DNA of 15,538 bases, counting the filler, from an uncultured Methanosarcinales archaeon (GTDB lineage Archaea; Nanobdellota; Nanobdellia; Woesearchaeales; CAYPCY01), in NCBI GenBank assembly GCA_964409385.1. It is 3 parts of 3 records of this genome, joined end to end, with 100 filler letters (N's around TTAATTAATTAA, not from the genome) between each part and the next. Parts side by side here need not be neighbours in the genome. Positions count along the whole stretch, not along the records: positions 1 to 7,215 come from CAYPCY010000011.1; 2 more parts are not named here. The stretch is one strand, 5' to 3'. The number at the start of each line of letters is the position of its first letter. Positions within the stretch are counted from its first letter, which is position 1. The position numbers are program-made. Positions 3,001 through 7,315 of the stretch are shown piece by piece.

Positions 3001-6000
3001 TTATTGCATTATTTAATGCTTCTTCAGAAGCTCTCAATAATTTTTCATTACCTCCCAGATCAATACTTTGGGCAGTGTCTGCAATATAACCGTTTATGTG
3101 AACGCCAATATCAACTTTTATCAAATCATTTTCTTTGAAGAAAACTTCTTCTTCATAAGTGGGACAATAATGAGCAGCAATATTATTTCTAGAAATTTGC
3201 ATTGGAAATGCTGGTTTTCCACCTAATTCTTCTATTTTCTTTTCTACTTTGTCGGCAACTTCAGAAAGTAAAACTCCTGGTTTAACCAGAGAAATAGCAT
3301 AAGTTCTTACTTCTTTAGCTATTTTTCCTGCTTTAATAAAATCTTCTTTTATTTCAGGAGTCATTTTTTAAATTATCATTATGATTTATTTAAAACTATC
3401 CCCTAAAGATTTAAAACTTTGTTATGTTTTATATTTATTATGAGCAAATTTATTGCATTAGCTGGAAATATTGCTTCTGGGAAAACTACGGCTGCAAGAC
3501 TTATAAGACAGGAGTTTGATTATGAACTTTTTGAAGAGCCAGTAATTGATAACAGATTTTTAGGGGATTATTATACTGATATGAATAGATGGTCTTTCAC
3601 ATTACAATTAGAATTTTTGATTAATAGATTTGAACACCATAAATTAATAGAGACTATTGATAAACATTGTGTCCAGGATAGAACATTAATTGAAGATGCA
3701 GGAATTTTTGCTAAATACTTACATTCTACTGGTAAAATGAATGATAAAGAATATTCTTTATACTTGGATTATTTCAGTCATTTTAATGCGCAAGTTAAAC
3801 AACCAGACAGAATTATTTATTTAGAAATTAAAGATGAAAATATTTTACTTGATAGAATTCTTAATAAGAGAAAAAGAAAGGAAGAAGCTAATATTACTGT
3901 TAATTTCTTAAAAGGTCTTAATAGTTTATATAATATTTTTCCTCAAATTGCTCAAGAAAAATATGGAATTCCAGTTACTACAATAAATTATGAACATATT
4001 AATATTAAACAAGAACAAGGCAAACGAAAATTTCTTAATTTGATTGAAAGAATTATCTAATTGCTACAAATACAGTTAGTAAGAATGTTAAAGCTGTAAA
4101 TACATAAAATATTAATTCGTCGATCTTCATTTTAGTAGATTATTCCTACAAGAACTCTTTCTATTTGTTCAAATCTTATTTTTTCAGGATCATTACTTAA
4201 GTTATTATCTCCTTTAGCAATGAAGTATATTCCATTATCATCATGTCCTATTTCTGCAATTCTGTGAATTACTATTCCTGTAACGTATGAAGATTTGTAA
4301 GATATAATATCTCCAACTTGTAAGTCGCTTGCTTTTTCAGGAGTTATTTGAATGGCATTAGCACCTTCATCTAAGAATGGAACCATACTATTAGTATTTG
4401 CAAACTTAGCCCATTGAGGATCGTTGATTTCGATTATAATTCTGTCTGAGAATACTTTTATTTGTGATTCTTTAATCCTGTCTTTAGGCATTTGAATTTC
4501 AGAATTTGATTTTAATCCTATGAATTCGAATGGTTTTTCTAGAGCGGATACTGAGTAAAAATTTCCTAGTAATATTCCTATTAGAAAGGTTGTTATCAAC
4601 CAAGAAAATCTTGAAAATATGTTTGTTTTTACCACTTTCAAGTAATAATATGTAGAATTCTATTTAAAAAGGTTTCGGTTCTCTTGTGCTTAAACCCTTA
4701 TTAAAATAAGAATAAACTAATATTTTTAGAATTTATTTTATCAATCGTTTTCTACTCTTGGAGCAAGAATGAATTCCATACTAACCCTATCTGGAGTCAC
4801 ATAGTCTAATTTTAAAGGATAATCACGACTAAATTTTATTGAAACTCTATCAGCAAGTTTAGAAGCTTGCATCATCTTTTTCAAATATTCAATAGAATAT
4901 TTAGAACTTATATTATCTTCAGAATTAACAAGAACTTTAGTAAAATCATTAGCTTCCAAATCAACATGTGCTTTACTTAAGTCTCCCTCGCCTGAAATTG
5001 CAAACTTACTATTAGAAGCAATTAAAGAAACCGCTTCGGCAACAATATCACAATCCTCAACAGCATTATTTAATACTGAAGATTCAGTTTCTATAGTAGC
5101 AACAAAATTCAAACTAGGAACCTTTTGTTCCTTATCATCAATCTCTAATAAAGGAATATGAAAACTCCTAGTAGAAGAACCCTTTAAAGTAATTTTTAAC
5201 TTATTATCTAAAGTTTCTAAAGTTAAAGTGTCTGTTGGATTTACCCTTCTAAGAACTTGTTTCAAATTTGAAAGGTTAAGACATAAATCAGAAGAATCAT
5301 CAACTTGATATTCTAGAAATGCTGAAGGCAATAACTTAAAAACTACCATCGCGACATTTGCAGGATCCATAGCTACAAGCTCTAAACCATTAGAACTAAC
5401 AGTAAATTTAGCTTCATTAACTATGTCCGAAATTATACTTATTGAATCTTTAAGATATTTAGGTTCTGCAAGTGTCAACTTCATGATAATACCCCCGAAT
5501 ACTATTGAATAGTTAGAAATTTATAAAGTTATGGGGTTATCTTCTTAACAAGTAAGCATCCTTAATGATTTTCAGAACAAAATTTAAATCTTTTTCTTCA
5601 ACTCTATGCCTCAATTCTAACCTTGCAGAAGCTTTAGAAAGTCTAATTATTGCTTTAACAAGTCTAGGGCTTACTTCTCTAAGAATATGTTCTTCTTGTT
5701 CTTTAAGTTCTTGAATAAAATCTACAACTTTTTCCTTTAAGGATTCAGGAAATGAAACTTTTAATGCATCTGCATAGTCAACATATTCCTTCAAGAAACT
5801 AATATCTTCAACACCATATTTTTGTTTTTTAGAAGCAATATGTTTTGTTATTTCCTTGAATTCTTTTAGAGAAGGTTTTCTAACAACAAACATTAAATGA
5901 AATCTTGAAAGTAATGCTTCATCAAAAGGCAATTGAGTTTTAGTAATATTTGTTCCTTTACCGACGAATCTATCTCCTTTAGGATTTGCTGTGGCTAAAA

Positions 6001-7315
6001 CCCTAACTCTTGTATTAAGTCTCTTATGAGTTTTGCCCTTATTATAAGTTATGAATCCTTTCTCCATAGCATTCAATAATGAAGCATGATCTTTTTTCAT
6101 CATTAAATTTAATTCGTCAATGCAACAAATTCCTTTGTCTGCCTTAACTAATAATCCTGGAATGAATTCTTTGCCTTTTGTAGTTCCAGTAAGACCAACC
6201 CCTGAAACTCCAGAACCAAGACCAAATTGAGAGTTTGGAGAAATTTCTTCAACAGCCCTTAACACTTCAGTCTTTCCAGTTCCAGGATCTCCAATAATTA
6301 GTAAATGAACAGTATCTTTACTAAATAATAATAGTGAAGCTGCTTTTATTATATCCTTATAACCTTTCAAATTTCTTCCTAAGAACTTTGATATTTCTGT
6401 TTTTGCTTGTTCAGAAAATCTTTGATATGCTTTCTTTTCAGCAGAATATAAGACTTTTCTATTAATATCATCAATTATGTTTTTTATTTCTATATCAGTC
6501 ACTATTGGTGAAAATTGTGGAAAAGAACCTAGCTTAAACTGAGTGTTTAGACTAGTCATAAAAGTTCCAACCACATTTAATTTCATTAGTTTTTTTACTT
6601 TCTTAAGATTGAAATCACTAAGAAATCTTGAAAATAGTTTTAATTGTCTTTTCTTTCTTGAAGATAATGGAATCAAATATCTTGCAGTTCTAAATAAGTT
6701 CATTTTATTGTAAATGAATAACTAGTTTATATTTTTTTAGTAATTGTTAAAAACAGGTTTTACTTTCTTTCATTATGAAATTTGCTCATATGGCTGATTT
6801 GCACATAGGAAGTTGGAGAGATCCTAAATTAAGAAATGCTAGTACTGTGGCTTTTGAAAGGGCTATTAATTCTTGTATTGATGAAAAAGTTGATTTTATA
6901 TTGTTTTCTGGAGATTTGTTTAATACTACACTTCCTGGCATTGATAATCTGAAAAGAGTTGTTAAGAAGTTGAAGAGTTTAGTAAAATCAAGAATTCCTG
7001 TTTATGTAGTTCCTGGAAGTCACGATTATTCTCCTTCTGGAAAGACAATGATTGATGTTCTTGAAGAGGCTGGATTGTTAATTAATGTTTTTAAGGGAAA
7101 AGTTGATGGAAAGAAATTATGTTTGGAATTTACTAAGGATGATTCTGGAGCTTTAATTACTGGAATTATTGGTAGGAAAGGAATGTTAGATCAAGAATAT
7201 TATGAAGATTTAGAANNNNNNNNNNNNNNNNNNNNNNNNNNNNNNNNNNNNNNNNNNNNTTAATTAATTAANNNNNNNNNNNNNNNNNNNNNNNNNNNNN
7301 NNNNNNNNNNNNNNN

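Follow-up and report, generated by a model that had tools for sequence, protein, structure and literature searches.

To our knowledge, all known cellular MCMs keep an N-terminal collar, and the eukaryotic paralogues MCM8 and MCM9 likewise retain the N-terminal tier. Extra archaeal copies are for the most part full-length MCMs carried by mobile elements. The isolated AAA+ core of Saccharolobus solfataricus (Sso) MCM is reported to be an ATPase and a promiscuous, less processive helicase, and GINS to bind the N-terminal domains of the full enzyme (Barry et al. 2007, PMC1807962). Sso K430 and T369 are described as gripping single-stranded DNA, T369 as a DNA-phosphate contact, with K430A abolishing unwinding (PMC6629641). 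According to a review, M. thermautotrophicus MCM no longer unwinds DNA once its helix-2 insert is removed, although it still binds DNA and hydrolyses ATP (PMC4619765). One DPANN MCM is reported to be monomeric until assembled by ATP and DNA and to gain activity upon loss of its winged helix (PMC13049513). Eukaryotic MCM8-9 are described as paralogues that cells retain in addition to the replicative enzyme and use for a different task (PMC10400076), and second, divergent archaeal MCMs as usually stemming from viruses, plasmids or integrated elements (PMC3914693).

The window analysed here, a stretch of 15,538 nucleotides (filler included) from a genome of the order Woesearchaeales (GCA_964409385.1), encodes a 388-residue MCM paralogue that we call headless MCM (Table 1). 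The first-pass annotation had described an MCM-like ATPase without N-terminal domain or winged helix, encoded apart from a canonical MCM, and our analysis agrees on each count. The reading frame is intact and specifies an MCM-type AAA+ protein, no MCM_N, MCM_OB or winged-helix family occurs among its 11 Pfam hits, and a second MCM of 672 aa is located on another contig (C4). The Pfam MCM P-loop model covers residues 101–291 (E 3.8e-39, 134.5 bits, cut-off 23.3) and MCM_lid residues 303–382 (45 bits, cut-off 27.4), and the NCBIfam MCM model reaches 155 bits against a cut-off of 940. The AAA+ tier and lid are like those of the archaeal replicative MCMs of Sso (3F9V, 4FDG, 6MII) and Mancarchaeum (8Q67), at phmmer E of about 1e-30. 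The AlphaFold model (pLDDT 93) has MCM ATPase tiers as its top structural matches (Z 34.2), with alignments that begin at residues 82–86 and give an rmsd of 2.2–2.9 Å over about 295–305 residues; for Sso chain 6mii_B the values are Z 33.8 and 2.5 Å over 300 residues. The subdomain A, zinc finger, OB fold and winged helix of replicative MCM are all missing from the protein, which carries a module of its own; 83 residues precede the AAA+ tier as compared with about 250–290. We conclude that the zinc finger is absent because the only two cysteines both sit in the Walker B strand. At the other end the protein terminates 4 residues past the last lid helix; members of the family have 0–13 residues after the lid, sampled full-length MCMs 77–96. 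The GC content of the gene resembles that of its flanks.

Table 1. Features of the headless MCM locus, in positions of the window.
Feature	Position	Strand	Basis
Headless MCM paralogue of 388 aa, from ATG to TAA	5537..6703	-	sequence, Pfam, AlphaFold, structural alignment
Family-specific N-terminal module, residues 1-83	6455..6703	-	model; HMM matches limited to family frames
N-terminal amphipathic helix, residues 1-11, ahead of conserved Pro-Leu; candidate docking/membrane helix	6671..6703	-	model, hydrophobic moment
MCM linker and first AAA+ helices, residues 84-132	6308..6454	-	alignment, structural alignment
Walker A GDPGTGKT, residues 138-145	6269..6292	-	sequence
Shortened helix-2 insert, residues 160-183	6155..6226	-	alignment to 3f9v, motif counts
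Walker B ICCIDELNL, residues 192-200	6104..6130	-	motif comparison
Pre-sensor-1 hairpin, residues 213-230	6014..6067	-	motif counts
Sensor 1 N240	5984-5986	-	N240 in 60/60 active members
Arginine finger SRF (R267)	5900..5908	-	R267 in 60/60 active members
MCM lid including sensor 2 R347	5558..5797	-	Pfam, model, motif comparison
PCNA, downstream of headless MCM	4741..5484	-	same strand; 52-bp gap with own TATA-like box
Mre11, divergent from headless MCM, cut by contig end	6775..7215	+	Mre11 near the gene in 13/72 loci
71-bp divergent intergenic region common to headless MCM and mre11	6704..6774	.	AT-rich TATA-like stretch, by eye

To characterize the motor we compared motifs in 60 active members of the family with those of 62 full-length MCMs. 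Walker A and B, sensor 1, the arginine finger, sensor 2, the ps1-beta (pre-sensor-1 hairpin) lysine and the helix-2 insert Ser/Thr are common to headless and replicative MCM. S167 aligns with Sso T369 (alignment to 3f9v) and K222 with K430; a Ser/Thr at 167 and a lysine at 222 are kept in 60/60 active members, neither position having played a part in defining "active". Other elements differ from replicative MCM. The helix-2 insert is 4–8 residues shorter (L171-to-G183 spacing of 11 residues in 60/60 active members versus 15–19 in 61/62 full-length MCMs) and is without the aromatic of Sso Y386. A 12-residue loop ahead of Walker A, including its arginine, is deleted, leaving an F127-to-H133 spacing of 5 residues in 57/60 as opposed to 15–18 in 57/62. 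Both the His and the Gln of sensor 3 are replaced, with K215 standing at the Q423 position in 58/60, and Walker B (DELNL) reads N199-L200 where MCM has DK. K215, N199-L200, the short insert and the missing loop are fixed and give the ATP site a trans face that differs from that of MCM. The ATPase motifs had been called intact and invariant, which is true of this copy and of 60/72 members and not of the 12/72 that are without Walker A and B. A hint of an internal duplication from Walker B to the pre-sensor-1 hairpin (E 0.04–0.05) was rejected (score 15.9–16.2 versus 14.3–14.4 reversed and up to 15.0 shuffled). The engineered Sso AAA+ core, which shows that such a protein can be a promiscuous, ATP-dependent helicase, lies within the same domain boundaries and likewise has neither collar nor winged helix; it was truncated in the laboratory, retains a complete helix-2 insert and has gained no module, whereas headless MCM is a natural, selected family. 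Collectively, alignments and model demonstrate an MCM ATPase tier in which the putative ssDNA-staircase residues are kept, the collar and winged helix are gone and a basic module stands instead.

That module had been put at about 100 residues; MCM homology begins at about residue 84, which reduces it to about 83. Residues 1–48 are basic, and the model is mostly helical, with three short helices, a two-strand hairpin (45–51, 60–66) and the beginning of a long helix (71–97). The first helix is loosely packed in the monomer model (pLDDT 68–70 at residues 1–10), and its hydrophobic moment (family median 0.61) equals the 95th percentile of 450 genome N-termini. The earlier description of the module as novel is justified insofar as an HMM finds family frames only; on an origin from a known fold, searches gave conflicting scores. 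A language-model feature search (Atlas) placed MCM_OB clusters on top (0.90 and 0.92), a single source possibly coloured by the remaining protein, and hhalign against canonical MCM N-terminal domains or OB folds gave E of 0.1–0.8, near shuffles and thus at chance level. The order of elements, three helices plus wing, fits a winged helix, with Z of 2.2–2.8 and rmsd of 4–8 Å against wHTH domains and an hhalign E of 0.07 against the MCM winged helix; for a remodelled MCM subdomain A the E was 0.08–0.1. Fold searches with a model of residues 1–98 (pLDDT 90), which the long helix 71–97 dominates, found no match of Z ≥ 5 among 48,161 chains (best 4.9; 4.5 in a second look), and best E values were 0.14 by Foldseek against the PDB and 0.097 against a viral structure library. 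These model-based searches appear compatible with a new fold and a known fold alike. No Pfam family matched more than two of 65 N-modules, a PDB sequence-profile search gave a best E of 0.18, PHROG returned no match, and a weak test among 52 candidate proteins of 680–2000 aa found no longer protein containing the module. A word resembling a PIP box (PCNA interaction) at residues 20–27 was discarded, its loose pattern recurring in 3/72 members at differing places.

The family is present in 69/221 genomes of the order, with 152/221 giving no match, and in 0/36 other genomes of the class; a MoxR protein (G050:C124) and a hit with stops (G337) were left out of the member set. Related copies in the order, as claimed previously, were recovered at 41–47% identity in frames of 384–426 aa in 16/60 order-level relatives. 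The further proposal of a stable family rather than a fragment is borne out by one copy per genome, a clade of its own (support 96–100, long stem) and a second MCM beside it. Active members are mutually just 40–55% identical, yet their catalytic and DNA-grip residues are fixed in 60. Because 25/25 carriers in one survey show a second MCM match (16/17 in another), headless MCM does not replace the replicative enzyme. The 12/72 dead members have full-length frames in which the DNA-grip residues are lost as well as Walker A and B, and they span genera (families f30, f82, f86). Identity of their core to the active consensus drops from 0.74 to 0.30 and that of the N-module is 0.31 versus 0.39, and their first helix is likewise amphipathic and aromatic-rich (median moment 0.55–0.56). 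With 12/72 members dead and 152/221 genomes without a match, not all lineages retain headless MCM for its motor. AU tests rejected neither derivation of the family from the order's own MCM (p 0.21) nor a single origin of the dead members (p 0.58, on long branches), and rooting of the tree with MoxR was spoiled by long-branch attraction. Taken together, these data support a lineage-wide, vertically kept paralogue. In the literature open to our search we found no publication on the family, and "MCM" does not occur in the main text of a preprint from 2026 that covers 208 genomes of Nanobdellota.

Of the earlier statement that the gene occupies varied contexts without mobile genes, the second half stands, as none were found in 28 recurrent neighbour clusters scanned; the contexts are less varied, since neighbours recur in an ancestral slot. 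Within about 5–6 kb of 72 loci we counted a UPF0175-like gene in 19 (directly divergent in 14), HerA in 17, oapA in 14 (in 12 as the immediate downstream gene, same strand) and Mre11 in 13, and PCNA lies next to the gene in 1/72. An old slot between the HerA/Mre11 block and oapABC/dipABC recurs; in this genome oapABC is on another contig. HerA and Mre11 nearby speak for a link of headless MCM to repair, but this link is weak because the block stands with an empty slot in 7/12 genomes without the gene. A promoter scan of bacterial type returned chance counts.

Our preferred reading, which we hold tentatively, is that headless MCM is a dispensable, non-replicative ring DNA translocase or short-range helicase recruited via its basic, amphipathic N-module. 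It would be an old MCM paralogue acting outside origin-licensed replication as an ATP-driven motor on DNA. We infer a ring because the trans-acting arginines make sense in an oligomer only, and it would form on DNA with ATP. Like the isolated Sulfolobus AAA+ core, it would probably travel along single strands in the 3'-5' direction, would be poorly processive and little selective in its substrates, and may open short duplexes or strip off proteins where DNA ends, forks or recombines. As a targeting device towards a partner or membrane, the N-module could stand in for the collar, and a protein without N-terminal domain and winged helix should respond neither to GINS nor to the usual way of loading. 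Because the insert is 4–8 residues shorter and the Y386-type aromatic is missing, it is doubtful that the protein is a true helicase, and the replaced His and Gln of sensor 3 also speak against this reading; the short insert may make the motor less of an unwinding enzyme and more of one for translocation or displacement. The motor would be dead in some lineages, which keep the protein as a scaffold.

An unlikely alternative is that headless MCM is a regulatory or decoy subunit, its ATPase tier docking on the canonical MCM ring or loader to tune or block it, and its dead forms doing likewise without ATP. The constant presence of canonical MCM and the better retention of the N-module than of the core in dead members are consistent with this. 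So is a stand-alone 90-aa MCM winged-helix protein (hhalign 98%), which would be a second decoy in the same system: it is divergently adjacent in 4/72 loci and occurs in 26/69 carriers versus 21/152 non-carriers. However, this co-occurrence is confounded by kinship and drawn from a profile seeded from carriers, 43/69 carriers showed no such protein, and the trans face is fixed and unlike that of MCM, as expected for a ring of headless MCM with itself.

A broader proposal strikes us as rather improbable: a previously undescribed class of cellular, collar-less MCM in DPANN archaea, tamed from a virus-like headless ancestor, would use its N-module to tether the ring to a membrane or partner and serve as a chromosomal DNA pump or remodeller in repair or division, an FtsK-like job outside replication, with pseudo-ATPase forms and the free winged helix as regulators. 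Another reading, which we regard as quite improbable, has the amphipathic helix anchor the ring to the membrane as a DNA pump that handles the chromosome at division together with the Dip/Oap/Arv division-site GTPase system. The loosely packed, aromatic-rich first helix of active and dead members and the position of oapA directly downstream would suit it, but the moment of this helix falls under that of oapA helices (best windows 0.66–0.94) and near that of packed helices of the same protein (0.52–0.56). In addition, oapABC is on a separate contig here, the block also stands without the gene, and the Dip preprint does not mention MCM in its main text.

We consider it very doubtful that headless MCM is a protein-remodelling ATPase that no longer acts on DNA, having evolved in the direction of the chelatase/MoxR type within the helix-2-insert clade. 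BchI/ChlI, MoxR and YifB share the AAA+ clade, the similar size and the missing collar, and the GLL and DELNL motifs presumably resemble BchI-type Walker B regions. Matches to Mg_chelatase, BchI and LonB models were nevertheless weaker, with profile scores far lower (MCM 134 bits, Mg_chelatase 35), the protein has an MCM lid and fixed DNA-grip Lys and Ser/Thr, and no vWA-domain partner occurs among the 28 neighbour clusters. Nor do we see special kinship with MCM8 and MCM9, whose PDB chains (684–1143 aa, versus 388 here) include the sequence matches 7wi7 and 8s91.

Equally doubtful is the idea that headless MCM was formerly mobile, entered the chromosome when the order was young and is now disappearing, with little or no function. 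Patchy presence and dead copies would fit, and a headless sister group, less common and likewise with an 11-residue insert and a short loop ahead of Walker A, is located in virus-like DNA, among small ORFs lacking assignment, with a VRR-NUC nuclease or phage-family gene (L276, L278); a metagenome scan with one of its members (P0196) found nothing, and a viral candidate (L381) was a frameshifted full MCM. Against this, the catalytic and DNA-grip residues are fixed despite low identity, and dead copies persist at full length across genera. No relative occurred on viral contigs among 54 pattern hits, and no plasmid or phage record covered 80% of the query. Ten records of mobile-element MCMs (TPV1, which carries a split MCM, pTN3, HFTV1, BJ1, MFTV1) are annotated as long MCMs, the nine measured having 554–919 aa and inserts of 16–20 residues; they group apart from the family, which is single-copy and set among housekeeping genes. 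A protein of mobile origin could in any case have a function today.

A lineage-wide collar-less MCM offers a natural test of the motor tier alone and of the purpose of the helix-2 insert, and bears on the way in which the replicative helicase of eukaryote type gained or shed its modules. The protein is small, comes from a low-GC genome of non-thermophile-like character and has matched natural dead variants, and is therefore directly testable in vitro. Genome-reduced DPANN archaea thus keep an optional DNA motor that is annotated merely as "ATP-binding protein": beside the normal helicase, many tiny uncultured archaea carry what would be a natural minimal motor with its putative DNA grip kept.

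The headless MCM paralogue is encoded on contig C11, which spans window 1-7215, with Mre11 and PCNA as its flanking genes and a GC content that tracks the flanking DNA. A Pfam search matched MCM at residues 101-291 and MCM_lid at residues 303-382 and returned no N-terminal-domain or winged-helix family, and the protein scores 155 bits against an NCBIfam cut-off of 940. The canonical 672-aa MCM of the same genome, on contig C4, is 33% identical to it over residues 128-373. We also note from translations that genes for TBP and an RPA-like OB-fold protein form a conserved cluster with the order's canonical MCM (loci L002, L020-L031). 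The predicted structure of the paralogue (pLDDT 93, built from 91 homologues) superposes on MCM ATPase tiers starting at about residue 84, and profile alignment detects MCM linker helices from about residue 90.

Coordinates of features in the window and in related genomes (L, loci; P, proteins)
Feature	Position	Strand	Remark
Headless MCM paralogue	5537-6703	-	uninterrupted 388-aa ORF, contig C11
Archaeal 16S rRNA, 5' part	7316-7664	-	
tRNA-Gly(GCC)	8539-8609	-	
Arginyl-tRNA synthetase	8873-10531	-	
Divergent regulator-like gene pair	12496-13383 and 13826-14764		within 10568-15462
Sister-group headless MCMs	L276:4986-6089, L277:520-1740, L278:806-1933; P0196, P0222, P0269-P0273		short acidic N-terminus
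Stand-alone MCM winged helix	L110:6446-6715; L103, L105, L115; G000:C1:249024-249287	+ (L110)	

The first-pass annotation had described a conserved N-terminal module of about 100 aa, distinct from that of the canonical MCM. The module is indeed family-specific, as HMM searches matched it only in frames of the headless MCM family, but it is shorter than claimed, the part free of MCM homology being about 83 residues by model superposition and profile alignment. The model gives it helices at residues 3-10, 15-25 and 30-41 and strands at 45-51 and 60-66, after which a long helix continues into the MCM linker. Residues 1-48 are basic, with a median charge of about +5 across the family. The first helix is amphipathic, with a median hydrophobic moment of 0.61 (the 95th percentile of this genome's 450 N-termini) that is lower than in oapA helices and close to that of packed helices of the same protein. 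It packs poorly in the monomer model and is possibly a docking or membrane helix. As to ancestry, Atlas features of the module point toward MCM_OB, and profile alignments with the canonical N-terminal domain, its OB part and the winged helix gave chance-level scores.

Copies at 41-47% identity occur in 16 of 60 relatives, and one further relative has a 28% copy. Across the order the N-module HMM gave a single match each in 69 of 221 genomes, a count that takes in the unpublished genome G185, and two in none. In a phylum sample there were 44 matches among 251, all inside the same order and one of them spurious. Among the matches listed for a smaller, kinship-listed sample, a listing that leaves out 32 weak rows, all 25 carriers had two MCM matches, and a second, short MCM copy was seen in 0 of 36 genomes from outside the order. 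Most named records with family members are assigned to Woesearchaeota, Nanoarchaeota or Nanoarchaeia. The label 'uncultured Methanosarcinales' stands on 23 of 80 records, which we suspect is mislabelling, and 13 of those 23 share the neighbour genes. Viral contigs yielded no relative, and plasmid and phage matches, at no more than 75% query coverage, were ordinary MCMs.

We inspected 73 loci, removed one MoxR and classed the remaining 72 by Walker A and B, which gave 60 active and 12 dead members. ATPase-region trees recover a clade of active members with SH-aLRT 96-100, its stem 0.3-1.0 changes per site long and separate from the order's own MCM; constraining them with that MCM was not rejected (AU p 0.21), all trees being quick searches without bootstrap. 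The headless MCMs are a genuine family.

Outside the sorting motifs, N240, R267, K222 and S/T167 are each kept in 60/60 active members and R347 in 58/60, the remaining two being truncated. Aligned to 3f9v, K222 corresponds to K430 and S167 to T369 of the Saccharolobus solfataricus (Sso) MCM. According to PMC6629641, these two belong to a set of four ssDNA contacts, the rest of which are main-chain, and K430A abolishes unwinding; the isolated Sso core is described in PMC1807962 as a promiscuous, weakly processive helicase. From the kept contact residues and the activity of the isolated Sso core we infer that the headless MCM should still grip DNA and move along it. Other changes are also fixed in active members: the helix-2 insert has 11 residues where full-length MCMs have 15-19, the 12-residue loop preceding Walker A is gone, sensor-3 Gln is replaced by Lys, and DEFDK has become DELNL. 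Removal of the whole helix-2 insert decouples ATPase from unwinding, according to PMC4619765. Judged by sequence, the motor of the family is rebuilt and more than a truncation of MCM. One member (P0146, P0277) carries an intein immediately after the Walker A lysine.

The 12 dead members contradict the first-pass statement that the ATPase motifs are invariant, which arose because only close matches had been looked at. They are stop-free frames of 357-402 aa from eight families of the order. Every sampled member of families f30, f82 and f86 is dead, f112 combines an active with a dead copy, both in identical gene order, and about 25 additional cluster representatives have degraded P-loops. In dead members, core identity to the active consensus falls from 0.74 to 0.30 and that of residues 10-98 only from 0.39 to 0.31; of the rows that are dead or degraded, 97% retain N81 and 89% retain F96, and K222 is mostly lost. 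Trees suggest several separate inactivations. A degraded row paired with an active row at support 96-97, and a single origin of dead members was not rejected (AU p 0.58). GINS51 adjoins all three dead f86 members (L081, L088, L091). Two broken copies, in G203 (L092; N-module and ATPase in separate frames of 118 and 321 aa) and G150 (L111; a 330-aa frame without the end of the lid), may reflect assembly error or decay.

The 11-residue insert recurs in eleven other headless proteins, ten of which join the family in the tree with low support (83); nine have a 6-residue pre-Walker-A loop and shorter, acidic N-termini, the N-module being unmatched. Three sister-group loci lie in virus-like runs of small ORFs of unknown kind, with a VRR-NUC nuclease at one and a phage-family gene at another, and two show a small gene overlapping the stop codon. 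This setting, known from just three short contigs, gives a hint of an ancestor that was headless and mobile; the viral collection contained none of the three. P0208 is a 432-aa headless MCM with a short insert and, by eye, an apparent N-terminal winged-helix domain. A stand-alone 90-aa protein is homologous to the C-terminal winged helix of MCM (probability 98%) and also has a conserved helix of its own at the N-terminus. It divergently adjoins the paralogue in 4/72 loci, adjoins PolB in the present genome and often lies tail to tail with PolB. It occurs in 47/221 genomes of the order, 26 of the 47 being carriers (Fisher p 1e-4, a figure that kinship and seeding inflate), and is possibly a decoy or adaptor for MCM loading.

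Neighbour counts cover 72 loci, each with flanks of at most 5-6 kb and many cut short by contig ends. A UPF0175-like gene lies near 19 (directly divergent in 14), its PIN-like partner near 18, HerA near 17, oapA near 14 (directly downstream in 12), Mre11 and an Obg-like GTPase near 13 each, and oapC near 11; the reading of the partner as PIN-like is our own, with a weak PADLOC match and no Pfam match. The PCNA pairing of the present genome occurs in 1 of 72 loci, and the PIP-like word of the paralogue is not conserved across the family. We equate oapABC with Haloferax dipABC, genes positioning the divisome, from Pfam OapB/OapC and the citation of the origin-adjacent operon in PMC13228585. The paralogue lies between the HerA/Mre11 and oapABC blocks in five genomes (G003, G034, G064, G075, G095). 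As controls, the UPF0175-like gene is present in 149/221 genomes and, of 12 paralogue-free genomes examined, directly faces oapA in 7. This makes the slot an old one, from which the paralogue has probably been lost many times. The earlier view of varied contexts overlooks this slot and the recurring neighbours, which do not prove a shared pathway.

The gene pair L079:6379-6921 and L062:3649-4350 is conserved and encodes a 180-aa protein and a 230-aa PIN-like protein. In the former, a motif of SNHTIHNASIFQD type is invariant and the C-terminus forms a UPF0175-like HTH; its gene is often first in the HerA/Mre11 block, divergent from oapABC. The pair, absent from the present genome, looks like a tamed toxin-antitoxin pair. 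Within the window, the N runs and TTAATTAATTAA linker at 7216-7315 are a contig join, and DNA beyond 7215 is not known to adjoin the paralogue gene. Window 10568-15462 is a succession of ORFs of unknown kind, including a low-GC stretch, with faint PHROG matches only; it may mark where an integrated element begins or ends.

A literature search in main texts, mostly outside subscription journals, found no publication on the family; the extra archaeal MCMs described in PMC3914693 and PMC3972481 are either linked to mobile elements or still have the N-terminal domain. Because the collar, the winged helix and the full insert of replicative MCMs are all missing, the headless MCM falls outside these, as a new variant within the MCM kind. 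A subunit regulating MCM seems rather unlikely, and a division-linked pump tethered to the membrane is improbable. A protein remodeller and a fading relic are, equally, poor prospects. The likeliest role, held tentatively, would be that of a dispensable motor ring, targeted via its own module and acting on DNA as a translocase or short-range helicase.
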